Origin: a virus
Lineage: Duplodnaviria; Caudoviricetes
Virus record (IMG/VR): IMGVR_UViG_3300047564_001818
Reading direction: 5' to 3' (one strand)
DNA length: 64,000 bases
Both the position numbers and the translations under genes were made by a program. Below the pieces are notes generated by a model. That model was not told the origin of the DNA. It worked only from the letters and a program-made list of their open reading frames with translations, and made no database searches. Shown here piece after piece: positions 22,763 through 35,686 of this stretch (position 1 is the first letter of the stretch; the number at the start of each line of letters is the position of its first letter).

Positions 22763-22802
22763 ATGTGTATTTACTGTAGGGCGTAGTAAAAAAGATCTGC
22801 AA

Positions 22803-22852
22803 AAAGATGAAAAAGTATTTGAACTATAAAGATGAAAAAGTATTTGAACTAT
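22803..22852. repeat. Perfect 25 bp tandem duplication AAAGATGAAAAAGTATTTGAACTAT
   Basis: Two adjacent identical copies. Confidence 0.9.
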
Positions 22853-23469
22853 GCCTGCCTCAACCTCGATCAATCTCTGCAAATTTGCACATAAACCGTT
22901 GAGAAGCTTGGCAAATCTGCACACTGAGCTCACGATGGGCCCGTCAAAACACCGGTTTTAGGGCTATAAAACACCCCTAGCGCCGCGTTAAAACCATTCG
23001 ATTTCAATGGTTTATACGATCTAGCTCATCCTAGATCTACACTGTGAGCACAGGCTCGATTCTGCCAGCAAGATCAATGACTTAGCATAAGAAGTTCAAC
23101 TGACCAATACACTATATACTTCAATGACTTAGTGGGCACAGTTCATTCAGAGGTCTCAGATTCGATTCTGCCAGCAAGATCAATCACTTAGCACACACAG
23201 TAGATACACAGCAAGATCAATGACTTAGCAGCTACACTAGGTTCTGGTGCTAAGTGATTGATACTATTGGCTTTCTCGCATCAATAGCTTACACAGTGAG
23301 GTTGAACCAATGGTGGTACTTGTAGTCGTTTGATATCGTTGAGCTCTTTGCTACTGATAAGTCATTGATATTGCTGTGTTCTTTTGGTGTTGGTGGCGGG
23401 GCGACGGTGTCGTTGCGTGTCGTGCGAGGGGTGTAAGGCAAAGTTTACAGGTGCAGTGGGAGGGAGATA

Positions 23470-23609
23470 GTTTAACATTAAACCATTCCTGCGGGGTAGT
23501 TTAACGTTAAACCATTTTGGGCGAGATTGTTTAGTGTTAAACCATTTTGAGGGAGACTGTTTAGTGTTAAACTATACAACCTGCGGCCAAGACTGTTTAG
23601 TCATTAAAC
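23470..23609. repeat. Five palindromic GTTTA-N4/5-TAAAC units at about 30 bp pitch
   Basis: Units at 23470, 23499 (perfect GTTTAACGTTAAAC), 23529, 23559, 23595. Confidence 0.9.
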
Positions 23610-23679
23610 CATAGGTTCAGGGCTCCGTGCCCTCCCGTCTACCGCTCCTGGCTATCGCCTTCTCGCTAACCTCACTTAC

Positions 23680-23708
23680 AGTATAGCACCTGTGCAGGAG
23701 TTTGCAAG
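23680..23708 (-). promoter_or_regulatory. Leftward sigma70-type promoter firing into the non-coding repeat block
   Basis: CTTGCA-N17-TATACT with extended -10 TG; no credible downstream ORF. Confidence 0.65.
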
Positions 23709-23847
23709 AGAATGTATTTCAATGTTTTCAAGGGGTTAGGAAATAAATTTATTTTGTAAGTCATTGATCTACAAGGAAAGTTTTTGGTTGTGCTCGTGTG
23801 TAGATGTGCTATTGTATACGAGTAGGGCAACACAAGAGGGAACGAAG

Positions 23848-24147
23848 ATGGGATACTTTCTTTACGATCGGCACAACACTCGCATAGTCAGCAAGGAGTA
23901 CAAGACTCATGCTGCGGCACAGGCAGAACTTACTCGTCGTCGTAAGGCTGCTGCGGGTGAATGGGGTGTGCTTCACGCAGAAGACGATCCGCTGTTCTTG
24001 TTGGGCATTGCAGAGAAAGAGTACTACTTCCGTCACATTGAGCGCTCTGTGACTCGTGTTAACTTGATGACGGGCGCGGAGTACCGTGAGAGCGTGAACA
24101 CGCCTTTGGCTTGCTCGCCTGCTTCAGAAACCTACTGGAGCCAGTGA
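23848..24147 (+). CDS. Early hypothetical protein
   Basis: Start revised to MGYFLYD after promoter, leader and GAGGG RBS. Confidence 0.75.
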   Translation: MGYFLYDRHNTRIVSKEYKTHAAAQAELTRRRKAAAGEWGVLHAEDDPLFLLGIAEKEYYFRHIERSVTRVNLMTGAEYRESVNTPLACSPASETYWSQ

Positions 24148-24219
24148 TTAGAGGTTGACAAGCCCTACTCCCTGTGCTATATATATGTGGAGTAGGGCAA
24201 CACAACAGAGGGCGACACA

Positions 24220-24375
24220 ATGAATCCAGAAATTGAGTCCATGCTGCAATTGACTGTTGAGCAATTGCTAAACGAGGATGGTGTAGGATGCGATCCTGCG
24301 GCTTTGGCTGCGGCACTGCGCGAGTTTGCGGAAATGATTGAAGCAGACATTGAGGCTGGCGCTTACGCAGAATAA
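24220..24375 (+). CDS. Early acidic 51 aa protein (absent from ORF track)
   Basis: MNPEIESMLQ...; own promoter, leader and RBS. Confidence 0.7.
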   Translation: MNPEIESMLQLTVEQLLNEDGVGCDPAALAAALREFAEMIEADIEAGAYAE

Positions 24376-24437
24376 CTGTTGACACAGCCTTGCAGATGTG
24401 CTATAACTTACACATAGGGCAACAAGAGGGAACTGAG

Positions 24438-24629
24438 ATGGAAAATTTGGCATTCTACTCTAAGTATGACTTTGTCAAACTGCTTCGTCAGAAGCGCGGC
24501 AAAGACTATACCCTTGGCTGGTTGGAGATGGCATATGCTATGCCGCCCACCACTGAGGAGTATGAGCAGGAGATGATCCGCAAGGAGATTCCCGTTCTGC
24601 AGGCGCTGCCGGACTACGACGGCGTCTAA
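24438..24629 (+). CDS. Early hypothetical protein
   Basis: MENLAFYSKY start after promoter, leader and RBS. Confidence 0.7.
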   Translation: MENLAFYSKYDFVKLLRQKRGKDYTLGWLEMAYAMPPTTEEYEQEMIRKEIPVLQALPDYDGV

Positions 24630-24700
24630 GGGGTTGACAAGCTTCAAGGCTTGTGCTATAACTAACATATAGAGCAACACAGTGTAGAGGGATACACACA

Positions 24701-25114
24701 ATGGGAACTCGTTCAACTATCGCAATTGAAAACGCAGACGGCACTGTCACTGGCATCTACTGCCACTGGGACGGCTACCTGAGCCACAATGGGCAAATCC
24801 TGCAAGACCACTATACTGACGAAGCCCGGGTGCGTGAGTTGATTGCTCTGGGCCACATCAGTTCGCTTGGTGCTGAGATTGGCACTGCCCATGACTTTGA
24901 TGCGGCTCCGCGTGGCGAGTGCAATGCCTACGGGCGTGATCGCGGCGAGCGTGATGTTGATGCTTATACTGAGCACAACTGGCGTCAGTACTGTGCTGAG
25001 CACGGACAGGAATACGACTACCTGTTCACTCCTGGGAAGGGCTGGCTGGTCCGCACCTACAACGGCATCTACGACCTTGCTCGTGCATTGGCAATCGAAA
25101 CCGAAGAAGCCTAA
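24701..25114 (+). CDS. Early phage protein (MGTRS...YCHWDGY type)
   Basis: YCHWDGY motif; own promoter. Confidence 0.8.
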   Translation: MGTRSTIAIENADGTVTGIYCHWDGYLSHNGQILQDHYTDEARVRELIALGHISSLGAEIGTAHDFDAAPRGECNAYGRDRGERDVDAYTEHNWRQYCAEHGQEYDYLFTPGKGWLVRTYNGIYDLARALAIETEEA

Positions 25115-25186
25115 GGCAGAAAGTGGTTGACACAGCCCTGCAGATGTGCTATTGTATATGAGTAGGGCAACACAAGAGGGACTGAG

Positions 25187-25426
25187 ATGTACAAGATCTA
25201 TGGCGACTATGGTTACACCAGCGAATGCCTGCTGCACACAGCCGACACTCGTTCAGAAGCCCTGCGCTGGGCAGACGACTATATCGCAGACGACTTTGGC
25301 GGCTATGCTGTGATTGAGGTTGCGGTTCACCTGAGCAATGGCGAATACAGCACCATCCATACCTACCGTGCAGAAGACTACGAGTACGAAGGCGATGACG
25401 ATTTTGCACTCTTGGAGGACTTTTAA
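25187..25426 (+). CDS. Early acidic hypothetical protein
   Basis: Own promoter, leader and RBS. Confidence 0.7.
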   Translation: MYKIYGDYGYTSECLLHTADTRSEALRWADDYIADDFGGYAVIEVAVHLSNGEYSTIHTYRAEDYEYEGDDDFALLEDF

Positions 25427-25427
25427 G

Positions 25428-25583
25428 ATGCTCTACTATGTGATGTGGGGCGTTGAGATCATCGCTGTATGCACTCGACCAGAAGATGCTCATGCAATGG
25501 CTGGCTTTGATTACAAGACCAAAAAAACCTACACTGTGGTAGCGAAAATGGTTGACAACACTGTAGAAGGTGCTATTGTATAA
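25428..25583 (+). CDS. Early hypothetical 51 aa protein
   Basis: GGAGG RBS; MLYYVMWG start. Confidence 0.55.
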   Translation: MLYYVMWGVEIIAVCTRPEDAHAMAGFDYKTKKTYTVVAKMVDNTVEGAIV

Positions 25584-25620
25584 GAGTAGGGCAACGCAAT
25601 AGCAGAGAGGGACACACGCT

Positions 25621-26025
25621 ATGGCATACGTTTCGCAAGAAGACAAAGCTAAACTGACTCCGGCGATCAAGGCTGTGCTGGCTAAGTATGGCATGAAGGG
25701 CACGATTGCTGTGCGTCATCACAGCACTTTGGTAGTCACTGTCAAGAGCGGTGCTATCGACTTCGGCGGCGACAACATTGATGTGAACGAGTATTGGATC
25801 GACCAGCACTACGAGGGCAAGGCTCGTAAGTTCCTCAACGAACTGCACAAGGCTATGATGGGACCGGACTGGTTCTGCGAAGACGACGCGATGACTGACT
25901 ACTTCCACCGCAGCCACTACTGCTCCATCCGCATCGGCAACTGGGGTCGTCCGTATGTGTTCATGGGACGCAGCAAGGACGGTATGGTAAACGGTGTGGC
26001 AGAAGAAGCCTACACCTTTGCCTAA
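25621..26025 (+). CDS. Early phage protein (MAYVSQE type)
   Basis: Own promoter, leader and RBS; 134 aa. Confidence 0.8.
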   Translation: MAYVSQEDKAKLTPAIKAVLAKYGMKGTIAVRHHSTLVVTVKSGAIDFGGDNIDVNEYWIDQHYEGKARKFLNELHKAMMGPDWFCEDDAMTDYFHRSHYCSIRIGNWGRPYVFMGRSKDGMVNGVAEEAYTFA

Positions 26026-26098
26026 ATAATGGTTGACAGCACACCACTGTCGTGCTATAACTAACACATAGGGCAACACTGCTAGAGGAGCACAGCAG

Positions 26099-26500
26099 AT
26101 GGCATACGGTGATTTTGTTACGTCAGTTGGCGAAACGGTTGGCATCGTGCGTCAGCACCGCCACGGCACAATCTTGATGAGCCGCTTTGGCACTGTTACC
26201 AAGATCAACGGACACGGCCACATCTACGTCCAAAGCGAAGACAAGGAGTATCGCTTCACTCGCCGCGGCTATGCCTACAAGGACGACTATGGTCCTGGCT
26301 TGATGCACGCCGCTAAACTGCGGATGATCCAAGAGAGTGAGACTCGTCGCAAGGAGCAGGTGCGGATTGCTCGTGCTATGGAGCAGGAACTCAAGGAAGG
26401 CTACTCCTACTCGGGCCGCTTCTTCCCCACCGCAGAGCGTATTGCTGCTCTAAAAAATCTGCTTGCAGACTTGGAGAAAGTGGTTGACAGCACGATATGA
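26099..26500 (+). CDS. Early hypothetical protein
   Basis: Own promoter, leader and RBS. Confidence 0.75.
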   Translation: MAYGDFVTSVGETVGIVRQHRHGTILMSRFGTVTKINGHGHIYVQSEDKEYRFTRRGYAYKDDYGPGLMHAAKLRMIQESETRRKEQVRIARAMEQELKEGYSYSGRFFPTAERIAALKNLLADLEKVVDSTI

Positions 26501-26542
26501 TCGTGCTATAACTATAGAGTAGACAGCAACAAGAGGGCAAAC

Positions 26543-26821
26543 ATGATGCTGAATGTGAATGACACTGTTCGTGCTTACAGCGGCCGGCCTGGCTGCATGT
26601 GCGGCTGCAATGGCACCTACAACGAAGGCGAGCGGGCTCGCAAGATGGCACTGACTGCGCTGCTGAAGAACCCTGCGGTGCGCTTGCAGACTTGGAAGCC
26701 CTCCGGCGGCGATGCTGGTTGCTTGTATGTGGAAACTGCAACTCGCAACCGTGTGCTGTATCTGACTGAAGAGGGTGCTGCGAAGTTGGCTGCACAGTTC
26801 CCTGAAATGGTTGACAAGTAA
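26543..26821 (+). CDS. Early hypothetical protein (YSGRPGCMCGC motif)
   Basis: Own promoter, variant leader, GAGGG RBS. Confidence 0.75.
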   Translation: MMLNVNDTVRAYSGRPGCMCGCNGTYNEGERARKMALTALLKNPAVRLQTWKPSGGDAGCLYVETATRNRVLYLTEEGAAKLAAQFPEMVDK

Positions 26822-26868
26822 GAACGTTCGTGCTATAACTTACACACAACGAGGCAATGGAGGGTAAC

Positions 26869-27420
26869 ATGCCGAACTGGTGCTCAAACTCAATCACTAT
26901 CACTGGTCCTGTGGAGAAGATTGCTGCGCTGTGGACCGAGGCTTCCACAGCCGGCGAACACAACGCTCTGCTCAATGCTCTGTGTCCGATGCCTAAGGAA
27001 CTCTTAGAAGGTGAAGCATGGTATGGCTGGCGTGTGGCCCACTGGGGAACCAAGTGGGACATTGACATGCAAGGTCTCGAGTTTGAAGAGTTCTCGGACG
27101 GCACGGCTGCCGTCACAGGTTGGGCAGACAGTGCATGGAGCCCGCCCGTTGATGCGTTCCAGGCTTATAGCAATGAGAATCCTGATGTGATGATGGAACT
27201 CAAATACTTCGAGCCCGGCATGGGGTTTGTAGGTGTATGGGACAACGAAGGTGGAGATGCCTATTGGGAAGGTGTTGACGAGTTGCTGGACACCACAGAG
27301 GAAGAAGACGCTGTGCTGCATGAACTGCTGGAATACTTTGACGTGGCCAGTTGGTTTGAGTCTGACGACGAGAACCTCGAGATTGATCTTGACGGCGGTG
27401 TGAGTGCGACGAACGAATAA
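26869..27420 (+). CDS. DUF1281/YubB ferredoxin-like-domain protein
   Basis: MPNWCSN.I.I.G, WR..HWGTKWD, SAWSPP, YFEPGMGFVG. Confidence 0.75.
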   Translation: MPNWCSNSITITGPVEKIAALWTEASTAGEHNALLNALCPMPKELLEGEAWYGWRVAHWGTKWDIDMQGLEFEEFSDGTAAVTGWADSAWSPPVDAFQAYSNENPDVMMELKYFEPGMGFVGVWDNEGGDAYWEGVDELLDTTEEEDAVLHELLEYFDVASWFESDDENLEIDLDGGVSATNE

Positions 27421-27490
27421 TAATGGTTGACACGGCTCTACTCATGTGCTATTGTATATGAGTAGGGCAACGCTGCTAGAGGAGCACACG

Positions 27491-27775
27491 ATGGCACGTA
27501 AGACGATCGAAGTTGGCAAGGTTCTTAAGATTGCGAATAACTTCCTTGCTGCGAAGCATACCACTGCTGATGAGCGCGAGAGTGTGTGTGCTGTGATGGA
27601 AGCTATCTTGTTTGAGACTGATAACTATCGCGGCTTTGCTTACCTGCCCAAAGAGAACTACGCCCACGAGACGGGCTTTGATCACGATGGCACTCGTCGT
27701 CGTTACTTCGTCAGCGGCACTATCGATGCTGACTACGAAGCAGAAGACCGCAACATCAACAAGATCCGGGCATAA
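27491..27775 (+). CDS. Early hypothetical protein
   Basis: MARKTIEV start after promoter and leader. Confidence 0.75.
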   Translation: MARKTIEVGKVLKIANNFLAAKHTTADERESVCAVMEAILFETDNYRGFAYLPKENYAHETGFDHDGTRRRYFVSGTIDADYEAEDRNINKIRA

Positions 27776-27785
27776 GGAGAACGAC

Positions 27786-27950
27786 ATGAACCCGTTGGCT
27801 TTTTTTGCGATGGTGGGCTTTGTTGTATTACTGATCGTCAGCACCGCAGCTTATACCTTTTCTAAATGCGGCTGGTATACTTTTGCACTGGGCAACGGTG
27901 CTGCGATGGCTGCCGTCACTGGCATGTGTGATAAAATTAATGGAGAATAG
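27786..27950 (+). CDS. Small membrane protein, paralogue 1
   Basis: MNPLAFFAMVGFVVLL...GMCDKINGE; AAGGAG RBS. Confidence 0.7.
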   Translation: MNPLAFFAMVGFVVLLIVSTAAYTFSKCGWYTFALGNGAAMAAVTGMCDKINGE

Positions 27951-27951
27951 C

Positions 27952-28119
27952 ATGGACCCTTTGGCTTTTTTTGCAATGGTGGGCTTTGTACTGTTGTTGG
28001 GGATTGGCACCATAGCTTACACCTTTTCCAAATGCGACCAGTATGCCTTTGCACTGGGCAAGGCGGCGGGGGTGTCGGTGCTGATCACTGGCATGTGCGA
28101 TAAAATCAATGGAGAATAA
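27952..28119 (+). CDS. Small membrane protein, paralogue 2 (tandem duplicate)
   Basis: MDPLAFFAMVGFVLLL...GMCDKINGE. Confidence 0.7.
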   Translation: MDPLAFFAMVGFVLLLGIGTIAYTFSKCDQYAFALGKAAGVSVLITGMCDKINGE

Positions 28120-28120
28120 C

Positions 28121-28234
28121 ATGGACTGGACCATCGAGGAATATCTTGAGTTTGAACGGCACTTGCTAGAACAAGCAGAAGCGGACGAAGACGAAATTCC
28201 GGTTGACGAACCTGTCTACTGGTGCTATAACTAA
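28121..28234 (+). CDS. Acidic 37 aa peptide
   Basis: MDWTIEEYLEFE...; GGAG RBS; runs through the next promoter. Confidence 0.45.
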   Translation: MDWTIEEYLEFERHLLEQAEADEDEIPVDEPVYWCYN

Positions 28235-28262
28235 CACATAGGGCAACACAAAGGACGCTGAG

Positions 28263-28544
28263 ATGAATAACTTCGCAACTGCTGTCACCGCAATCCAAAA
28301 GATGAACAACGACGAACTGAACGCTGTGGTTCGTGCGATCAAACTGCGCCGCACCTACCTTGCTCGTCAGAGTGCTAACACTTTCCAAGTTGGCGACCGT
28401 GTGAGCTTTGCTGCTCGCGGTATGCAGGTGCTGGGCACTGTAACCAAAGTCAACATCAAGACCATCCAAGTCAAGCAGGACAATGCCTACACCACGTGGA
28501 AGGTACACGCAAGTCTTTTGCATCCTGTCAAAGAAATGGCTTGA
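28263..28544 (+). CDS. Early protein with SH3-like C-terminal domain
   Basis: FQVGDRVSF..G.V.KVN.KT pattern; own promoter and leader. Confidence 0.75.
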   Translation: MNNFATAVTAIQKMNNDELNAVVRAIKLRRTYLARQSANTFQVGDRVSFAARGMQVLGTVTKVNIKTIQVKQDNAYTTWKVHASLLHPVKEMA

Positions 28545-28597
28545 CAGGTTGCTGTATACGTGCTATAACTAACACATAGAAACACAAGAGGGACACG

Positions 28598-28786
28598 ATG
28601 AAAGATTACATGACACTGATCGCAATCATTGACCGGCTAGGCTATATTGCAGAACTTCCGTCAGCTAAGATCCGCCAAGCACTGGATCAATACATTGCTC
28701 AACTGGAAACAGAAGTTCGTCAAATTGATGAAGAGACGGAACGTCAATGTCGAATTGATGACATGTTCGAGAACGTGCCAGTGTAA
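28598..28786 (+). CDS. Early hypothetical protein
   Basis: Own promoter and GAGGG RBS; precedes the tRNAs. Confidence 0.7.
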   Translation: MKDYMTLIAIIDRLGYIAELPSAKIRQALDQYIAQLETEVRQIDEETERQCRIDDMFENVPV

Positions 28787-28795
28787 ATAGACAAC

Positions 28796-28871
28796 GCCCG
28801 GTTAGCCCAAAGGTAGAGGCAACAGACTTAAAATCTGTCAAGCGTCGGTTCGACCCCGACACTGGGTACCA
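28796..28871 (+). tRNA. tRNA-Leu(UAA), short variable loop
   Basis: Acceptor GCCCGGT/ACTGGGT, anticodon arm ACAGA-CTTAAAA-TCTGT, GTTCGA, encoded CCA. Confidence 0.9.
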
Positions 28872-28876
28872 AACAT

Positions 28877-28953
28877 GGGGGATTAGCTCAATTGGTTAGA
28901 GCGACGGTCTCATAAACCGCAGGTTATCGGTTCAAGTCCGGTATCCCCTACCA
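28877..28953 (+). tRNA. tRNA with CAU anticodon (elongator Met or Ile2)
   Basis: Acceptor GGGGGAT/ATCCCCT, loop CTCATAA, GTTCAA, CCA; lacks initiator features. Confidence 0.88.
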
Positions 28954-28959
28954 AATATT

Positions 28960-29036
<77 letters not shown>

Positions 29037-29039
29037 AGT

Positions 29040-29097
29040 TAGCAGGAGTTGAGATTGCGCTGTGTTGCCCTATGCTGCGTTGGATCTCCTCCTGCTA
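29040..29097 (+). ncRNA. Putative antisense sRNA hairpin whose loop is complementary to the shared early-mRNA 5' leader
   Basis: Stem TAGCAGGAG/CTCCTGCTA + GAGAT/ATCTC + GCGC/GCGT; loop TGTGTTGCCCTATGCT contains the reverse complement of CATAGGGCAACACA. Confidence 0.7.
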
Positions 29098-29127
29098 CGC
29101 TGATAGAGTTTAACCAAGGAGAACACC

Positions 29128-29307
29128 ATGGCTATCTGTCCTAACTGTCATACACCAGACAAGAACTTCTTTGCGCCTGCTTGCCATGCTTGCAACGAAC
29201 AGATTCCTTTGATCCAGCAGATCATTGTTAGCTTGATCTTCTTGTCAGTCAAGGCAGTGTTTGTGATTGCGATGTTGTGGTTCCTTTTTGTTTATCTTCC
29301 AGGTTGA
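29128..29307 (+). CDS. Zn-ribbon (CxxC...CxxC) plus transmembrane 59 aa protein (absent from ORF track)
   Basis: MAICPNCH...ACHAC then a hydrophobic tail; AAGGAG RBS. Confidence 0.65.
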   Translation: MAICPNCHTPDKNFFAPACHACNEQIPLIQQIIVSLIFLSVKAVFVIAMLWFLFVYLPG

Positions 29308-29358
29308 CAACTGCTGCGTAGAGTGTATACTGAACAAGTAATGAGCAAAGGGCACAAC

Positions 29359-30360
29359 ATGACTAACGTTACAATCATTGACGGCACGTACAAGATCCGC
29401 GGCGCTGACACTTCAGTAGCTGGTCTGACCTTTCCGTTGGTAGAACCGTTCCGTATGGGCAAGACTGGCGGCTATGTCACTGTGGATGGTTCAGCTGTGA
29501 ATGGCTTTCCGGCTCGCAACATCAAGATCCGTGTGAACAGTGAGCAGGACTACGAACTGCTAGAAGGCCCCGCTGTATACAACTCTAGAACAGAAACTGA
29601 TGCGGAGATTGTTGAGCGCATCCGTAGTCGCTTTGCTATGCTGGGCGAGATGACCAAGGCTGTGAAGAAGGGCGATGTACGTGCTATGATCGTATCAGGT
29701 CCTCCGGGTGTTGGCAAGAGCCACGGTGTTGAAGAAGTATTGGATCGATACAAGATGATGGAGACCATGGGCGGCAAGAAGACACACGAAGTGATCAAAG
29801 GCGCTATGAGCCCGATCGGACTGTACTGCAAGCTGTTCAAGATGAGCGAAGCTGGAAATGTGGTTGTGTTCGATGACTGTGACAGCATCTTCCAGGAAGA
29901 CCTAAGCTTGAACATCCTCAAAGCTGCACTAGACAGCAAGCAGAATCGTTGGATCCACTGGAACACTGACAGCTTCAAACTGCGCAACGAAGGTGTGCCT
30001 GACAAGTTCAAGTTTGAAGCTAGTGCAATCTTTATCACCAACTTGAAGTTCGACAAGGTCAAAGGCAAGCTTAGAGAACACCTAGAAGCATTGGAGTCAC
30101 GCTGCCACTACATGGATCTAACGATCGATACCGAACGTGATAAGATGCTGCGCATCCGGCAAGTGATTGAAGATGGTATGCTGGATGTGTACACACTGAG
30201 CGATGACATCAAAGAAGACATCATCGACTTCGTGGACATCAACAAGAGCCGACTGCGTGAACTGAGTCTGCGCAGTGTGCTCAAGGTAGCAGACCTGGCA
30301 GTAAGCTTTCCAGACCGCTGGCAGGACTTTGCTGAGAATACGGTGATGCGTCGAGCCTAG
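29359..30360 (+). CDS. P-loop AAA-type ATPase
   Basis: Walker A GPPGVGKS, Walker B VVVFDDCD, ALESRC; own TTGACA promoter. Confidence 0.85.
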   Translation: MTNVTIIDGTYKIRGADTSVAGLTFPLVEPFRMGKTGGYVTVDGSAVNGFPARNIKIRVNSEQDYELLEGPAVYNSRTETDAEIVERIRSRFAMLGEMTKAVKKGDVRAMIVSGPPGVGKSHGVEEVLDRYKMMETMGGKKTHEVIKGAMSPIGLYCKLFKMSEAGNVVVFDDCDSIFQEDLSLNILKAALDSKQNRWIHWNTDSFKLRNEGVPDKFKFEASAIFITNLKFDKVKGKLREHLEALESRCHYMDLTIDTERDKMLRIRQVIEDGMLDVYTLSDDIKEDIIDFVDINKSRLRELSLRSVLKVADLAVSFPDRWQDFAENTVMRRA

Positions 30361-30375
30361 CTCCGCATGCCGTTG

Positions 30376-30551
30376 GGACAATGGACCGCCCTCGTCCATT
30401 GTCCACATGTGGACTGAGTGTGCCCTCGCTCAGTTCACGAAGGCCGAAGCAGCCGATAAGAGCTGTTCGGTAAGGCTGGTAGACGAGCCCTCACGCTCTG
30501 CCAGAACAGCCCGGAGTTGGCGTGCCCTCTGCCGCTCCGGGCTATTTTTTT
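30376..30551 (+). ncRNA. Putative multi-hairpin sRNA with four GCCCUC loops, ending in an intrinsic terminator
   Basis: Hairpins 30376-30404 (loop CGCCCTC), 30409-30438 (TGCCCT-C), 30443-30471, 30476-30504 (AGCCCTCA), 30508-30543 (GTGCCCTCT) followed by T7. Confidence 0.75.
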
Positions 30552-30614
30552 GGTTGACAAGCCGTGCAGAAGGTGCTATTGTTAACACATAGGGCAACAC
30601 GGAAGGGCAAGAAG

Positions 30615-31025
30615 ATGTACACCTTTGATGAACAGATTGTATCCGATCTCCACAAAGACGCTCGTGGCTACCGCCCAGATGCATACTTTTGGGAAGAGTG
30701 GAGCCAAACCGGCGACGACACTCGCCAAGCTATGTGGGACAACCTGCTGCAGGAACTGGCCGCTGAGACAGCACGTCAACAGGACGCCTATGCTCGTGCA
30801 GAGATTGAGTTCCATCAGCGTGTGCAAGGCATGATGCTCTCAGGTGCCAAGGACGAACTGACTGCTATCCGTTGGATCCTCGAAGCCGAACAGTTCACCG
30901 AGAACGATTGGGCTTACGGTTCGGACTATGTGGCTTTCCACTTCAACTTGCCCTACAAAGGCCTATTTGATCAGCAGATCCAGACTGTCCTCAACGAGAT
31001 GGAGACCCAGGCTGACCTTGGCTAA
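30615..31025 (+). CDS. Early phage protein (SDLHKDARGYRP type)
   Basis: Start revised to MYTFDE after promoter and leader. Confidence 0.8.
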   Translation: MYTFDEQIVSDLHKDARGYRPDAYFWEEWSQTGDDTRQAMWDNLLQELAAETARQQDAYARAEIEFHQRVQGMMLSGAKDELTAIRWILEAEQFTENDWAYGSDYVAFHFNLPYKGLFDQQIQTVLNEMETQADLG

Positions 31026-31154
31026 GTTATTGATAACATTGACAAAAACTTTTTTGTAAGTGCTTGTTTTCTAACAAAACATTTCTCTTGCAATGTGCGC
31101 TGTATAGTGTATAACTGTATTTGTAAGCAACACAGCATATGCGAGGAGCACAAT

Positions 31155-31433
31155 ATGCAAAACACTGTAGCAAATACTAATTACGTTTTTGTAATGCTTG
31201 ATGACGCTACAAACGCAATTGTACTGCGTATTAATAAAACTGTTGACGTTTTTTGCAATAGTGCAAACGACATAATTGCTGCATTTAAACAATATAATAT
31301 TACGGACTGCGACACTATTATGGCGAGCAGCGACGTGGATTTTGCTACGGAGTTTGACTATGCGTACGACAGTGCAGTACACGACATGCTTGACGAAGCT
31401 TTTGACGCACTAAATTTTAAACAATACGTTTAA
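31155..31433 (+). CDS. Early acidic protein encoded without TC/CC dinucleotides
   Basis: MQNTVANTNY; GAGGAG RBS; CTTGCA-N17-TATAAC promoter. Confidence 0.7.
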   Translation: MQNTVANTNYVFVMLDDATNAIVLRINKTVDVFCNSANDIIAAFKQYNITDCDTIMASSDVDFATEFDYAYDSAVHDMLDEAFDALNFKQYV

Positions 31434-31522
31434 AAAAACAGCAGCACACAGCACTTTTTACTTGACAAGTGCTGTGTGCTGTGCTATAAGTTACACATAG
31501 GGCAACACAAGAGGGACTGCAC

Positions 31523-31714
31523 ATGACACGCGAAGAACTGTTTGCTAATATTGCACAAATTGCTGCTGACGCATACGACAACACAGATGCTGACGAAGTG
31601 CAAAGCTGGGATGCATACGAAGCAGCAAAGCAGATTGTTGCTGCAATGCAAGCGTTTGGCTACGACATTGCAGACATGTTGGAGCAAATAGAGGAAGACG
31701 CAGACGAAGCGTAA
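31523..31714 (+). CDS. Early acidic protein encoded without TC/CC dinucleotides
   Basis: Own promoter, leader and RBS. Confidence 0.75.
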   Translation: MTREELFANIAQIAADAYDNTDADEVQSWDAYEAAKQIVAAMQAFGYDIADMLEQIEEDADEA

Positions 31715-31816
31715 CACAAAAAAAACAGCAGCGCACAGCAACTTAGGGGTTGACAGTTGCTGTGTGCTGTGCTATTGTTAACACATAGGGCAACACAACA
31801 CAAGAGGGACCTCAAG

Positions 31817-32005
31817 ATGAATACCACAAAGCGCAACGCTCAGTTCGAAGCAGCCTTTGATCGAGTGATCGAAGCCCAGCTGTTGATGGAAGGTATTGCT
31901 GTTCTCACTGCTGACAGCCACGCAATGGACATTCAGGCACGCCTGCAGAAGATTGTCAAAGAGATGTGGCAGTTCAAAGGCAACGTTGCTCAAGGACGCA
32001 AATAG
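31817..32005 (+). CDS. Early hypothetical protein
   Basis: MNTTKRN start after promoter and leader. Confidence 0.7.
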   Translation: MNTTKRNAQFEAAFDRVIEAQLLMEGIAVLTADSHAMDIQARLQKIVKEMWQFKGNVAQGRK

Positions 32006-32068
32006 AGGTTGACACAGCCCTGCTCATGTGCTATTGTATATGAGTAGGGCAACACAACGGAGGGCAAG

Positions 32069-32212
32069 ATGAAGATCCAGATCAAAAGCGAAGACATCCA
32101 ACGCCGCAACCCTGTTGCACGTGAACTCGCCGCTGCTCAGTTCCGTGCCCGCACTGTGCGTGATCGCACCAAATACACCCGCAAACAGAAACACCGCAAA
32201 GGAGAACTTTGA
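32069..32212 (+). CDS. ArfA-like small basic protein (absent from ORF track)
   Basis: RNPVARELAAAQFRARTVRDRTKYTRKQKH resembles the ArfA core (FRxR...Y.RK.KH). Confidence 0.55.
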   Translation: MKIQIKSEDIQRRNPVARELAAAQFRARTVRDRTKYTRKQKHRKGEL

Positions 32213-32388
32213 TGACCTTCTACCACTACTTCAAAACCGTTTGCCTTGTGATCGCCAGCCTTGTGGCCTTTGTTGTGATCATGAGCCCAGAGACTGTGGG
32301 GCAATGGCAAGCCCGCAAGGCCATTGCATACGATCAGATCTGGATTGAATGGGTTGGTGACTGCGACTGCACCGAGCCGCTAGAGTAA
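32212..32388 (+). CDS. Small membrane-anchored protein (absent from ORF track)
   Basis: MTFYHYFKTVCLVIASLVAFVVIM...; TGATG coupling. Confidence 0.55.
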   Translation: MTFYHYFKTVCLVIASLVAFVVIMSPETVGQWQARKAIAYDQIWIEWVGDCDCTEPLE

Positions 32389-32477
32389 GCGAGAATCCGC
32401 TGACGGTCAATAAAACCCGTTGACTATCCTGTAGAAGCTGCTATAACTACTATACGAACGACAAAAAGGAGAAACCA

Positions 32478-33065
32478 ATGCGGATGATTCACATCCTCGG
32501 CGGCGTTGCTTCTTCAGCCGTGATCGTTGCAATGGCAGTGGTTTACTTGACGGCAGATGAGGCAAAGGCGGCCGTCAACCCCAAAGAGATAGTATACATC
32601 GAACGAGTGGTGGAGCGTGTGGTCCATGTGCCCATGCCCACTAGACCTGGACAGGATCCCAAGGCCATCTTTGCTGATGCAAACGAAGAAGACCGCTACT
32701 GCCTTGCTCAGAACATATACTTCGAAGCACGTGGTGAAAGTCTACTGGGACAAGCTTTGGTAGGTTGGGTAACACTGAACAGAGTTCAGAACTCTGACTT
32801 CCCCGAAGATATCTGCACTGTGGTTTGGCAGAAGGGACAGTTCAGCTGGACACATGATGGCAAGAGCGATCGACCTCGAAACAAAGAGTCTTGGGCCGCT
32901 GCTCAGATCGTTGCCGATGAAGTGATCCAAGCTTACGGAGTAGAACGTGATCCCACTGAAGGCGCAACCTACTTCCATGCTGATTCAGTTAACCCAAGTT
33001 GGGCCAAGAGCTTCGAACGAGTGGTTCGTATCGATAATCACATCTTCTACGCAGATCGAGGTTGA
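32478..33065 (+). CDS. sleB: Cell wall hydrolase, SleB/Hydrolase_2 family
   Basis: CLAQNIYFEARGE, V.LNRV...FP..IC.VVWQ..QFSW, GATYFH, IDNHIFY; N-terminal membrane anchor. Confidence 0.9.
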   Translation: MRMIHILGGVASSAVIVAMAVVYLTADEAKAAVNPKEIVYIERVVERVVHVPMPTRPGQDPKAIFADANEEDRYCLAQNIYFEARGESLLGQALVGWVTLNRVQNSDFPEDICTVVWQKGQFSWTHDGKSDRPRNKESWAAAQIVADEVIQAYGVERDPTEGATYFHADSVNPSWAKSFERVVRIDNHIFYADRG

Positions 33066-33117
33066 CAACACCCTACTCTGGTGCTATAGTATTAGAGTAG
33101 GGCAAGAGGAACACGTC

Positions 33118-33267
33118 ATGAACATTGATGAGCTCAAGACACTGTGGCGGTTTTGGACTGCGGGCGGCGTGTGGCAAGGTTGCCGTGCTACAGGGCAGAT
33201 AGTCCGTGCGGGCACCTACTCTGCGGTGTTGAAGCAGGCGGAATGGTTTGAACAAAGCACGTGGTGA
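33118..33267 (+). CDS. Early 49 aa protein
   Basis: MNIDELK start after promoter and leader. Confidence 0.6.
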   Translation: MNIDELKTLWRFWTAGGVWQGCRATGQIVRAGTYSAVLKQAEWFEQSTW

Positions 33268-33473
33268 ACCAGATGTGGCAAGTAAGAACACAATTCTCCA
33301 AACCACCAGCAGAGAATCCTACAGGAGCGTGGGAGTGGAACACGGTGTTGGTGGATACCGAGGCAGAAGCCGAAACATGGTGGCACACTCGTACCACTGT
33401 TAAGACGGTGGGCCGCAGAGTCTGCACCATGTTCAACCCTGCAGGCGATTTGGTTAGAGTCCAATTCAAATAG
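33261..33473 (+). CDS. Early hypothetical protein
   Basis: Overlaps the previous stop; 70 aa. Confidence 0.55.
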   Translation: MVNQMWQVRTQFSKPPAENPTGAWEWNTVLVDTEAEAETWWHTRTTVKTVGRRVCTMFNPAGDLVRVQFK

Positions 33474-33533
33474 TGGTTGACACACCGACTGTGTCGTGCT
33501 ATAACTAACGCATAGGGCAAGAGGAGCAAGACA

Positions 33534-33674
33534 ATGATCAAGTTCACTACGGGGCTGCTGGGGCTGATTGCGATTGCTAGCGCACATGACAACGTCAGCT
33601 TGCTGTTGTTAGCGGCGGCTGCAATGCCTTTCCTAACGCTGATGATTGCTTCCATTCGTGACATTGCGGAGTAA
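33534..33674 (+). CDS. Small hydrophobic early protein (absent from ORF track)
   Basis: MIKFTTGLLGLIAIA...; own promoter and leader. Confidence 0.6.
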   Translation: MIKFTTGLLGLIAIASAHDNVSLLLLAAAAMPFLTLMIASIRDIAE

Positions 33675-33778
33675 CACTGTGAAGCAGATCGGCTTTATGT
33701 GGGTCGCAGTGACATATCACAGTTGACAAACACCACGACAGATGCTATAACACAGCATAGGGCAACAAGGAGCACGAC

Positions 33779-34060
33779 ATGAAACTGAACGCTGCAAACA
33801 TCCAACGGATCCAAGGCTACCTCCGCAACGTTGCTGAAGTGGATCCCAACGACACTATCGCTAACAGAGCAAGCCAACTGGCTGTGGACTTGGAACTGGT
33901 GTGTGTTCCGTTTGAATACGACACACTGAGTGAAGCAGAACAGGTGCTGGTACAGTATGCCGTCAGCAAGCGCGAGCAATATGTATTGCTGCAGGGGCAC
34001 CGTCACGCAACTGATCTACAGCGTGTAGAAAAACAGCGCAGAACACTCAAAAGAGGTTGA
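33779..34060 (+). CDS. Early hypothetical protein
   Basis: Own promoter and leader. Confidence 0.7.
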   Translation: MKLNAANIQRIQGYLRNVAEVDPNDTIANRASQLAVDLELVCVPFEYDTLSEAEQVLVQYAVSKREQYVLLQGHRHATDLQRVEKQRRTLKRG

Positions 34061-34116
34061 CACTAGATCAACTGATGTTAGTATTAGTGTATAGGGCAAA
34101 CAAGAGGGAACACACT

Positions 34117-34311
34117 ATGAAGAGACTTGCTGCTATCCTAGCACTGATTGCTGCTGCCTCGGGCCTGTCGGGCTGTGCTGCCACTGGCATTGATCACAGT
34201 GAAGATCGTGCTGCGCACGACGCATACCTTGAGAGCATCTATACCAAGTATGATCCCGAATATGTAGACGACTGCTTCTACTACGAAGAGTTGGTGTGCG
34301 AGTTCGAATAA
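34117..34311 (+). CDS. Early lipoprotein
   Basis: MKRLAAILALIAAASGLSGC lipobox. Confidence 0.7.
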   Translation: MKRLAAILALIAAASGLSGCAATGIDHSEDRAAHDAYLESIYTKYDPEYVDDCFYYEELVCEFE

Positions 34312-34402
34312 ACGGTTGACACACTGACTGTTCGACTGTAGTATCAGTGTATAGGGCAAGGCAAGAAAGACTTCTTGCTTCAACACAAAGAGGGAATACA
34401 CT

Positions 34403-34795
34403 ATGATGATCACCATGGACACTATCGCAGTGCGTGACGAAACTCTCACTGCGGCTGCTGAGGCTGCACAGGACTACATCCAGGAATGGAAGCGCAACAC
34501 TGGCGGCAATGCCTACGGTGAGCCTGCATACTGCGGCTTTGCTTGGGTCACTGTGTATCCCAAGTTCGATCACAAAGGCAACACCCGACAGGGCAAAGAT
34601 GAACGCAAACTGTTTGACACTGTGATGACTGAGCTAGGCCTGCGCAAAGACTGGACTGGCAAGGCTTATGAACTGTGGAACCCCAGCAAGTGGGGCGGGC
34701 AGAGCATGGATGTCAAGGAAGCAGGTGCTCGCGCTGCGGCTAAGGTACTGCAGAAGTATGGATACGCTGCCTACGCAGGCAGCAGAGCAGACTGA
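34403..34795 (+). CDS. Early phage protein (CGFAWV...KEAGARA type)
   Basis: Own promoter, leader and GAGGG RBS. Confidence 0.8.
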   Translation: MMITMDTIAVRDETLTAAAEAAQDYIQEWKRNTGGNAYGEPAYCGFAWVTVYPKFDHKGNTRQGKDERKLFDTVMTELGLRKDWTGKAYELWNPSKWGGQSMDVKEAGARAAAKVLQKYGYAAYAGSRAD

Positions 34796-34822
34796 CACTG
34801 TCACTGTTGAGAGAGCAACTGG

Positions 34823-34849
34823 ACACAGCCCAAGGGCTGTGTTTTTTTA
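34823..34849 (+). terminator. Intrinsic terminator closing the early island
   Basis: ACACAGCCC-AA-GGGCTGTGT followed by a T-run. Confidence 0.8.
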
Positions 34850-34927
34850 TCACTGTGCTCTACACACGAGATAAGAGAAAGCACAGCGCAATGGCTGTGC
34901 TCTCTGTAAGCCTAACGTGCGCTGTGC

Positions 34928-35137
34928 TTAGTAGTCCGTGTCATACTCCCCGTCCGCATTGTCGTAGTAGTGTTCCTGTGCTGCACCCCCTACAGTCATA
35001 CGAGCTTCGTTTAGCTGACGCAGTGCTGCGCGAGCAGTGCGGCTGTCAGTGGCTGCTAGCAGTGTGTGCGCTTGTGCTAGCAGTGCTGCGACTTGCTGCA
35101 TAGTGTTTACGTGCTGCTGCTGTGCGTCGTTAAGCAT
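34928..35137 (-). CDS. Early hypothetical protein on the opposite strand
   Basis: Promoter TTGCAC-N17-TATACA at 35198-35170, variant leader ATAGCGCAACAC, GAGG RBS. Confidence 0.7.
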   Translation of the reverse strand: MLNDAQQQHVNTMQQVAALLAQAHTLLAATDSRTARAALRQLNEARMTVGGAAQEHYYDNADGEYDTDY

Positions 35138-35345
35138 GTGTGCCTCTCAGTGTGTTGCGCTATACATAATGTATAGCATATTTTTGAGTGTCGTGCAAGC
35201 ACTAAGTTTTGTTTAATAACAAGGGGTTAGAGAAAAAATTTTTTGAGAGGGGGGGTGGGGGGTATATAAAAATAAATCTTTATAAAACAAGCACTTAGCT
35301 TAATGATCTGTTTTTTTGTCACTTTTCTAAAACTGGGTGATGCAG

Positions 35346-35509
35346 AATCACCACCTCACTTCTGTAAGTACTTCACCATAATTTTTTGCGCGGCAGTTTT
35401 TTTACACTGCAAACTGAATTTCGGGCGCACACAATCACCACCTCACTTCTGTAAGTACTTCACCATAATTTTTTGCGCAGTGATTTTTTTTGGGTACAAA
35501 CTGAATTTC
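35346..35509. repeat. 46 bp perfect direct repeat at 87 bp pitch
   Basis: AATCACCACCTCACTTCTGTAAGTACTTCACCATAATTTTTTGCGC at 35346 and 35433, each followed by CAAACTGAATTTC. Confidence 0.9.
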
Positions 35510-35518
35510 ACTCTCTGA

Positions 35519-35686
35519 TCACTGTGAGTCTAAAAGTTCCTCTTTCACCGTAAGAAATCTTACCTCTACTGGCAAACACAGATCCGCAGGCTGTGTTTTC
35601 AAACCTTCGCACTGTGCTTTTGTCTGTACCACAATGCCATTACGGTACGCTCCACTTTCCAGTGCTATTAACAGCATCCACCACAT
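35519..35686 (-). CDS. Small hypothetical protein
   Basis: MWWMLLIAL; GAGGGAG RBS; TAAATA upstream. Confidence 0.5.
   Translation of the reverse strand: MWWMLLIALESGAYRNGIVVQTKAQCEGLKTQPADLCLPVEVRFLTVKEELLDSQ

Follow-up and report, generated by a model that had tools for sequence, protein, structure and literature searches.

A predicted promoter-early stem-loop type island with an invariant transcript leader in a PA5oct-like freshwater jumbo phage

The window analysed here, which is the whole 64,000-nucleotide stretch of IMG/VR record IMGVR_UViG_3300047564_001818, contains a hyperplastic island (23783-34850, + strand), predicted to be expressed early, in which 24 co-directional cassettes, each composed of a promoter, a leader, a Shine-Dalgarno sequence (SD) and an open reading frame (ORF), are accompanied by three tRNAs, one structured RNA and two intrinsic terminators. 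The element under study is the leader, the word TAGGGCAA. The window contains 22 copies of it where 1.9 are expected, and none of 100 shuffles reached 22. Seventeen exact copies lie on the + strand of the island between 23823 and 34359, and the 24 promoter units on that strand consist of these 17, four units with a variant leader (TAGAGCAA at 24670, TAGACAGCAA at 26520, TAGAAACA at 28577 and TAAGCAAC at about 31124) and three without a leader, P9 (26811), P13 (29304) and P18 (32420). An initial annotation of this DNA had counted about 24 cassettes, 17 exact copies and about five variants, and the recount agrees with it, the fifth variant being found on the - strand. On its anatomy and setting the array is here assigned to the promoter-early stem-loop (PeSL) type, a known kind of module in a new phage lineage.

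Layout of the predicted early island

The units share a common architecture. Upstream of TAGGGCAA they carry GGTTGACA, a variable 14-nt spacer, (G)TGC, a -10 hexamer of the form TAT(A/T)(A/G)(C/T) and seven bases ending in a purine, an arrangement which conforms to the sigma70 consensus TTGACA-N17-TAT(A/T)(A/G)(C/T) and which includes the TGn of an extended -10 in 23 of the 24 + strand units. An AT-rich stretch is present above the -35 (A/T-rich columns at -45 to -41, 0.7-0.9 bit), and the stop codons of the preceding genes lie 5-20 nt ahead of the -35. Each unit ends in a strong SD (AGAGGGA/C, GAGGAG or GGAGGG) followed by ATG, whereas the SDs of the other genes in the window are mostly weak or missing, and the GC content of the island is about 0.50, compared with 0.34-0.45 in the flanks and 10-15 points above that of the structural and replication genes. 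The order of elements described in the initial annotation, a near-consensus sigma70 promoter with extended -10 and then the leader, SD and ATG before small ORFs, is confirmed by these observations. The cassettes are not insulated promoter-to-terminator units, because a terminator does not follow each gene: only two intrinsic terminators, at about 30508-30550 and at 34821-34850, the latter closing the island, were found in its 11 kb. Given this near-absence of terminators, the transcripts of one unit presumably run through the units that follow.

Among the units with the exact leader, P1 (23783-23847, gene 23848-24147) has a weak -35, TTGTGC, followed by TGC-TATTGT and the leader at 23823. The leader lies at 24415 in P3 (24379-24437, gene 24438-24629), at 25587 in P6 (25552-25620), at 28239 in P11 (28203-28262), at 33513 in P20 (33477-33533) and at 33758 in P21 (33723-33778), where the spacing is shorter by 1 nt. 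P14 (30554-30614, leader at 30590) is placed directly 3' of the first terminator, and P7 (26033-26098, leader at 26069) has an untranslated region that is conserved in two related contigs, L003 and L005, while the promoter above it has been swapped. These L-numbers denote relative IMG/VR contigs, of which L003 is the closest and L005 is IMGVR_UViG_3300008108_000310.

Of the variant units, P4 (24634-24700) and P12 (28541-28597) carry leader variants that are identical in L003, and P8 (26484-26542) has a hairpin inside its spacer (GCACGAT/ATCGTGC). The fourth, P14b (31088-31154, gene 31155-31433), is a probable unit that reads TTGCAA..TATAAC with the variant TAAGCAACAC at about 31124. The segment around it, 31030-31450, is AT-rich and rich in T runs in the midst of the GC-rich island, and its promoter, with the leader TAAGCAAC, is differently built. 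The - strand variant, TAGCGCAA / TAGCGCAACAC (T at 35162), belongs to a convergent promoter (35138-35198) ahead of the gene at 34928-35137.

The three leader-less units stand before the genes with recognisable domains. P9 (26811-26868), which reads CAACGAGGCAA and is leader-less in L003 and L006 as well, precedes the gene for a DUF1281_C-like domain; P13 (29304-29358), with a degenerate leader (TAATGAGCAAAGGGCA), precedes an AAA ATPase gene (29359-30360); and P18 (32420-32477), leader-less also in L003 and L023, precedes the gene for a SleB-type cell-wall hydrolase (32478-33065). The orthologs of all three genes are likewise leader-less or have a degenerate leader.

Conservation of the leader and the spacer-leader hairpin

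The position of the leader is fixed with respect to the promoter and not with respect to the ribosome-binding site. In the relatives, the exact 8-mer stands behind 88 of 179 promoter-like sites, exactly 7 nt past the -10 in 82 of the 88, while the distance from leader to SD varies from 0 to about 16 nt, and internal genes that have no promoter of their own have no leader. In 33 orthologous promoter pairs, pooled over all relatives, the -35 is 96% identical, the spacer 43%, and the -10 and the leader 73% each, the value for the leader taking in L005, whose flavour is its own; at four-fold-type codon positions the identity to L003 is 69%. On these comparisons the leader is judged to be anchored to the promoter or 5' end rather than to the ribosome site, and to evolve more slowly than neutral sites. 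The initial annotation had placed selection on +1 to +12, and the contrast between spacers and leader among the orthologs supports this for +2 to +9 (or +12).

The leader is not the same word in every lineage. L005 has TAGGCAGCAA and TAGACAGCAA, L006 and L008 have TAGGCAAACAA, and L015 and L016 have TAAGTTAACAA and TAGTTAGAC; all of these versions start with TA, are poor in T and contain no TG or CG step. Two side observations concern such differences. The early promoters of L005 are all built differently from those of the window (CTTGACAA, no TGn, a -10 of TATAT(T/A), and the leaders TAGGCAGCAA or TAGACAGCAA), even at the orthologs of window genes, which looks like a clear case of genome-wide concerted promoter evolution. 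In another phage group (L012, L013, L017, L019, L022, L025-L028, L030 and L032), promoters of the form TTGACAAT..TGTTATATT are followed by a conserved start word, (A)GCACTGAT, and lineage-specific invariant leaders behind early promoters may be common.

In folding predictions the leader is mostly unpaired in its own locally started transcript, and no fold was found within that transcript. An Rfam covariance-model search with the leader and hairpin passed only the three tRNAs, other matches lying far below the gathering scores, and a literature search for the word TAGGGCAA gave nothing relevant among the 10 best-ranked of 909 matches. The consensus for NAD capping and the preference of RppH were also considered, and were set aside because the leader sequence does not fit them.

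A fold does appear when the sequence upstream of the transcription start is included. In 24 of the 73 unique promoters of the family (stem score of at least 8), the stretch of spacer next to the -35 can pair with the discriminator plus TAGGGC(A), where shuffled spacers give 0.5 such stems on average and 4 at most. The hairpins have stems of 8 to 15 bp with the -10 hexamer in a 6-nt loop. The lower stem is constant (GCCCTA/G against TAGGGC), the TAGGGC base being invariant, and the upper stem contains compensatory pairs: CTCAT/ATGAG, CTCGT/ACGAG, CTCC/GGAG, CTCT/AGAG, CCCTT/AAGGG and TGCG/CGCA. Over 71 aligned promoters the covariation score was 0.160, compared with 0.123 in shuffles, of which none of 500 reached the observed value, and at most 0.142 in slid controls. 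The structure exceeded all 500 shuffles in percent paired, in cells changed on both sides and in covariation score, and all of the slid controls in percent paired and covariation score. The initial annotation had held that the spacers differ while the leader is conserved; the spacers are indeed diverse, but they are not free, since about one third of them are complementary to the leader.

The stems are not symmetrical between the strands. When modelled on the sense strand they contain 52 G.T pairs, against 6 A.C pairs, the equivalent on the antisense strand, and the mean stem length is 12.0 compared with 7.4. This asymmetry probably reflects a fold of the sense strand, the simplest site for which would be read-through RNA, because a transcript begun at the unit's own start would not include the 5' arm.

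In the window, clear hairpins of this kind are found at four units. At P2 (24155-24219, leader at 24193) the stem GCCCTACTCC (24162-24171) / GGAGTAGGGC (24189-24198) encloses the -10 (dG -25.5); at P10 (27427-27490, leader at 27463) a 14-bp stem, 27435-27448/27455-27468, holds the -10 in a 6-nt loop (dG -26.2); at P17 (32009-32068, leader at 32045) the stem is again of 14 bp, 32017-32030/32037-32050 (dG -31.2, z -5.4); and at P19 (33062-33117, leader at 33098) it is of 13 bp, 33071-33083/33090-33102. A partial stem, GCCCTGC/GTAGGGC, occurs at P5 (25127-25186, leader at 25163), and the folds of these five units have energies of -24 to -31 kcal/mol and z values of -2.9 to -5.4. Shorter stems surround the -10 at P22 (34057-34116, leader at 34092; ACACTA/TAGTGT) and at P23 (34316-34402, leader at 34352; ACACTGA/TCAGTGT). 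In two further units it is the -35 that lies in the loop of a 14-bp stem: P15 (31442-31522, leader at 31498; stem at about 31442-31455/31468-31481, dG -29.2, z -5.3) and P16 (31729-31816, leader at 31786). In all, about 40% of the window units have a stem-loop, of which five or six enclose the -10, two have the -35 in the loop and several are short spacer stems.

Phage lineage, cassette exchange and likeness to known modules

The window also encodes tail fibres, a DnaB-type helicase, a primase and a large terminase. The best match of the terminase is that of the Pseudomonas jumbo phage PA5oct (Arenbergviridae), at 54% identity, followed by weaker matches to many T4-like phages, and the source of the DNA is taken to be a PA5oct-like freshwater jumbo phage, a distant relative and not a member of the Tevenvirinae. 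DNA of the window is present in freshwater metagenomes of several studies; in GenBank no phage is close at the DNA level, and only the tRNAs gave matches.

The full promoter-leader pattern, with 20 specified bases, was found in 32 stretches in about 25 IMG/VR contigs. One of these contigs, 330 kb long and 93% complete, has its copies clustered at 213-227 and 293-294 kb, and another, a fragment of 60 kb, has 21 of them within 17 kb. The bacterial genomes of GTDB (596 Gb) gave two matches, which is the level expected by chance. The pattern is thus a signal of the phage lineage, and its reading as a type of host promoter was rejected. PA5oct itself was dropped as a model for the array, because its 39-kb terminal repeat gave just 9 loose promoter matches and does not share the leader; the PA5oct paper describes 32 TTGAC/TATAATA promoters and no leader motif.

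Comparison with the relatives indicates that the cassettes are mobile. Those at 34403-34795 and 30615-31025 sit elsewhere in the closest relative (L003 and L004), several are present in the window only or in L003 and L004 only, and L005 is heavily reordered. By inspection, the spacers of orthologs are either near-identical or unrelated. The haplotype running from the -10 to the leader of one window gene recurs in L003 before a different gene, which points to promoter swapping with its right-hand limit at the leader. The cassette at 31817-32005, served by P16, is absent in L003, where the junction joins one promoter's spacer to the SD and gene that belong to the following promoter.

Breakpoints in natural populations were mapped by aligning contigs of four freshwater runs, from four studies, to 22800-35600 at 90% likeness. 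The 24 joints listed have 48 ends, 28 of which fall in the promoter-to-ATG blocks that make up 11.7% of the stretch (23 blocks were counted, P14b being left out; the binomial P is about 1e-14, with ends that are not independent of one another), and 7 further ends fall between a stop codon and the next -35. One joint, from 24431 to 25181, with 9 shared letters, is present in all four runs, and three others lead from one leader to the ATG of another gene (26078 to 28263, 24422 to 30618 and 31797 to 23845). A comparison of cassette order for breakpoints at leaders had been set beforehand as a check, and the junctions do fall at the promoter-leader-SD blocks; the proposal of the initial annotation that these blocks act as homology points for the gain, loss and shuffling of cassettes gains support from the cassette order of the relatives as well as from the breakpoints in the four metagenomes. 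A role of the leader as a recombination joint is supported by the same material.

These properties are those of PeSLs, which have been described for the T4-type phages RB49/phi1, T4/PST and KVP40/nt-1 (Arbiol et al. 2010, PMC2839356; Comeau et al. 2014, PMC4122927). A PeSL consists of an AT-rich stretch, a sigma70 early promoter, a stem-loop that is mostly between the -35 and -10 or over the -10, an SD and an ATG, and PeSLs are found ahead of ORFs without known relatives (ORFans) in hyperplastic regions (PMC2839356, PMC4122927); crossovers have been mapped between the -10 and the SD/ATG (PMC2839356). The window units have in common with them the AT-rich stretch, the near-consensus sigma70 promoter, the stem-loop at or above the -10 and the terminal SD and ATG, as well as the setting before small ORFans in a hyperplastic region, at sites of indels, replacements and displacements between close relatives. 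They differ in their probable lineage, a PA5oct-like jumbo phage instead of Tevenvirinae; in the invariant initial transcribed sequence of 8-11 nt which forms the fixed 3' stem arm and persists in units that have no 5' arm; and in that a clear stem-loop is present in only about 40% of the copies. For PeSLs, promoter activity, attenuator activity and the formation of mini-circles have been demonstrated by experiment. The covarying stem-loop, the swapped promoters in the relatives and the breakpoints in natural populations are new.

Two other systems resemble the units in part. A 5' stabiliser of the STAB-SD kind, such as that of B. thuringiensis cryIIIA, is an SD-like sequence near the 5' end of an mRNA that binds 30S subunits and blocks decay from the 5' end. 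It shares with the leader a purine-rich, SD-like box at the 5' end and distant from the start codon, but UAGGG is only partly complementary to the 3' end of 16S rRNA. The promoters of phage T5, such as N25, are likewise strong phage early promoters for the host polymerase in which the first 10-20 or so transcribed bases matter for output, as described for their initial transcribed regions and promoter escape (Kammerer et al. 1986 and Hsu et al., as cited in PMC5961368; PMC12464699). Unlike the present units, they have no known link to hairpins or recombination. To our knowledge, no strict shared sequence word has been reported for the T5 promoters.

Most of the cargo of the cassettes has no recognisable function. 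With PHROGs and Pfam, recognisable domains were found in only 3 of 30 ORFs scanned, namely the AAA ATPase (phrog_1250), the Hydrolase_2/SleB-type cell-wall hydrolase and the DUF1281_C-like protein, and a few more ORFs match PHROGs or DUFs of unknown function. The suggestion in the initial annotation that the ORFs are factors for host takeover or anti-defence is a reasonable guess and not a result. At 27786-27950 and 27952-28119 there are tandem paralogous genes of 54 and 55 amino acids (MNPLAFFAMVGF.. and MDPLAFFAMVGF..) with no promoter between them, where L003 and L005 have a single copy.

Just above the first early promoter, 22800-23780 is free of genes and contains six copies of AGATCAATGACTTA, three direct and three inverted, within longer repeats. 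It also contains at least three units at 30-nt spacing (five by eye) with a palindromic core, GTTTAAC(R)TTAAAC, at 23462-23610, and a perfect 25-nt tandem duplication at 22803-22852. In these features the region looks like an origin or a regulatory or terminal region.

The role of the leader and the competing explanations

The reading that accounts best for these results, to which a probability of roughly 0.55 is given, is that the island is a PeSL-type early island of a PA5oct-like phage in which the leader is a box acting at the RNA level and the promoter-leader-SD block is a crossover site. The host sigma70 RNA polymerase would start at the purine 7 nt past the -10, as the consensus and spacing indicate, so that each local message would begin with R-UAGGGCAA(CAC), unstructured, followed by the strong SD. 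Transcripts from upstream would read through the next promoter, and at about one third of the promoters the read-through RNA would be able to fold into the hairpin, here of 10-15 bp, with the spacer as the 5' arm, the discriminator plus UAGGGC(A) as the 3' arm and the -10 in the loop. The leader would be a 5'-end or SD-like AGGGCA(A) box which decides the fate of early messages, through stability or translation, and which would lie open in RNAs that start locally but be masked in those made by read-through. As comparison with the relatives shows, the block of about 60 bp is in addition the crossover site for the swapping of promoters and for the gain, loss and relocation of cassettes.

Several points weigh against this reading. 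The start sites, the read-through and the early timing are all inferred from the nucleotide sequence. The hairpin cannot account for the conservation of the leader, since a complementary spacer is missing from two thirds of the promoters that carry it. The excess of G.T pairs is partly due to the fixed promoter letters GTG/TAT, and in the fixed arm G/T positions outnumber A/C positions by about two to one. Lineages have different leaders (TAGGCAGCAA, TAGGCAAACAA, TAAGTTAACAA), and concerted evolution in which no dedicated reader is involved could likewise yield lineage-specific leaders. The metagenome joints were accepted at 90% likeness and often have short sides, so many of them come from related phages and are not variants of this genome. 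Viable rearrangements are moreover expected to break at gene boundaries in any case, and the boundaries here are almost all such blocks.

If the leader is not read as RNA, it could be an element for the polymerase: TAGGGCAACAC would then be an optimised initial transcribed sequence which allows quick escape from tight promoters and fixes the start. The fixed register with respect to the -10 and the occurrence of the leader only with promoters are in keeping with this, and so is its composition, since the leader is purine-rich and has no YG (TG or CG) step in +1 to +12, with all of the lineage versions free of YG and poor in T; YG steps slow escape, and purine-rich sequences raise the productive yield (PMC5961368). 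However, the known effects of initial transcribed sequences are effects of composition and pause steps, which leave an 8-mer that is invariant in 17 copies, and versions that are exact within lineages, unexplained. There would also be no reason for spacers complementary to the leader with sense-strand G.U pairs, and P9, P13 and P18 are equally strong promoters with no leader. This explanation is considered unlikely.

A second alternative keeps the reader at the level of RNA but places it in trans. The island contains 25 copies of AGGGCA where 3.8 are expected, 20 of them no more than 45 nt upstream of a start codon, and the AGGGCA(A) box is found at many true SD positions as well as in the leader. 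It might be a common address of early messages, carried by the leader at the 5' end of 17 of them and by GAGGGCA at many SDs, which is read by a phage multi-hairpin RNA while the cis read-through hairpins mask the internal copies, as an antisense switch that ends early translation by shutting off early messages. The candidate reader is the RNA directly behind the AAA ATPase gene (30361-30550), which is strongly folded (z -6.6) into four hairpins with YGCCCUC loops and ends in the first intrinsic terminator; four of the five copies of GCCCTC in the island are its loops. It is kept in all seven relatives examined (L002, L003, L005, L008, L015, L016 and L023) as 2-5 hairpins and a terminator, with YGCCCUC in nearly every loop and with stems that differ while the loops stay constant, and it has no match in Rfam. 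The loops, however, remain GCCCUC in L005, L015 and L016, whose leaders do not contain AGGGC, so that they go with the SD-type box and not with the leader, and a complementarity of six bases is by itself weak evidence.

The other candidate for such a reader in trans is a hairpin (29040-29098) linked to the tRNAs for Leu(UAA), Met(CAU) and Arg(UCU) at 28796-29036. Its apex at 29061-29074 is the reverse complement of CATAGGGCAACACA, and thus an exact 14-nt complement of CAUAGGGCAACACA, that is, of the leader. It is not found after tRNA-Arg in L003 or L005, and an IMG/VR scan with the 15-nt apex word GTGTTGCCCTATGCT returned only chance coding matches and two ordinary promoters, with no comparable stand-alone copy; as a conserved small RNA directed at the leader it was consequently rejected. 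Positions 29049-29076 read TTGAGA-N16-TATGCT, which resembles the L023-type promoter TTGACA..TTGCCCTATGCTATAAC, and the hairpin looks like a decayed promoter, a half-PeSL relic. With both candidates weighed, an antisense switch in trans is decidedly improbable.

The remaining two alternatives carry very little weight. A DNA-binding protein of the phage or host which switches all of the early promoters off (or on) together could block the polymerase from a site overlapping +2 to +9, would suit lineage-specific leaders through co-evolution with the regulator, and might see the perfect inverted repeat TTGCCCTA-N15-TAGGGCAA around the -10 of a few promoters (L023, L011), but it is very hard to reconcile with sites that are mostly single and asymmetric, a 5' arm of varying position and island proteins in which no DNA-binding domain was found with PHROGs and Pfam, and its palindromic form is rejected because the inverted repeats tolerate G.T and not A.C pairs, which indicates a single-stranded sense fold and not a palindrome read by a dimer. 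Equally remote is a leader with no function of its own, conserved solely by the copying and homogenising of promoter modules: promoters and leaders do have a flavour particular to each genome, several cassettes have a few -10-to-leader haplotypes of 26-28 bp in common, and the ortholog spacers appear on inspection to be identical or replaced, but conversion would homogenise the spacers too, and the spacers share 43% identity between orthologs and are of many kinds inside the genome. The 8-mer, by contrast, does not vary in 17 copies and recurs in about 25 contigs between which the identity of the genes is only 50-90%.

Because a polymerase-level role, a palindromic operator and pure hitch-hiking are all disfavoured, an RNA-level box is favoured, and the 8-mer is most likely under sequence-specific selection at the RNA level. 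The initial annotation had regarded the leader as a functional tag that could be a small-RNA target, a repressor operator or an initial-transcribed-sequence element; the covarying hairpin with its sense-strand G.U pairs favours a role in RNA, and the same hairpin speaks against a palindromic protein operator.

The array extends the modular shuffling of the PeSL type from T4-like phages to an abundant group of uncultured freshwater jumbo phages, and the breakpoints in natural populations lend support to the view that promoter cassettes generally drive the turnover of accessory genes in large phages. The invariant start of the message, which would double as a hairpin arm, offers a testable handle on local versus read-through early transcripts. 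The island may also serve as a set of about 20 strong natural variants of promoter, leader and ribosome-binding site, together with about 30 early ORFans for use in screens for host takeover and anti-defence.

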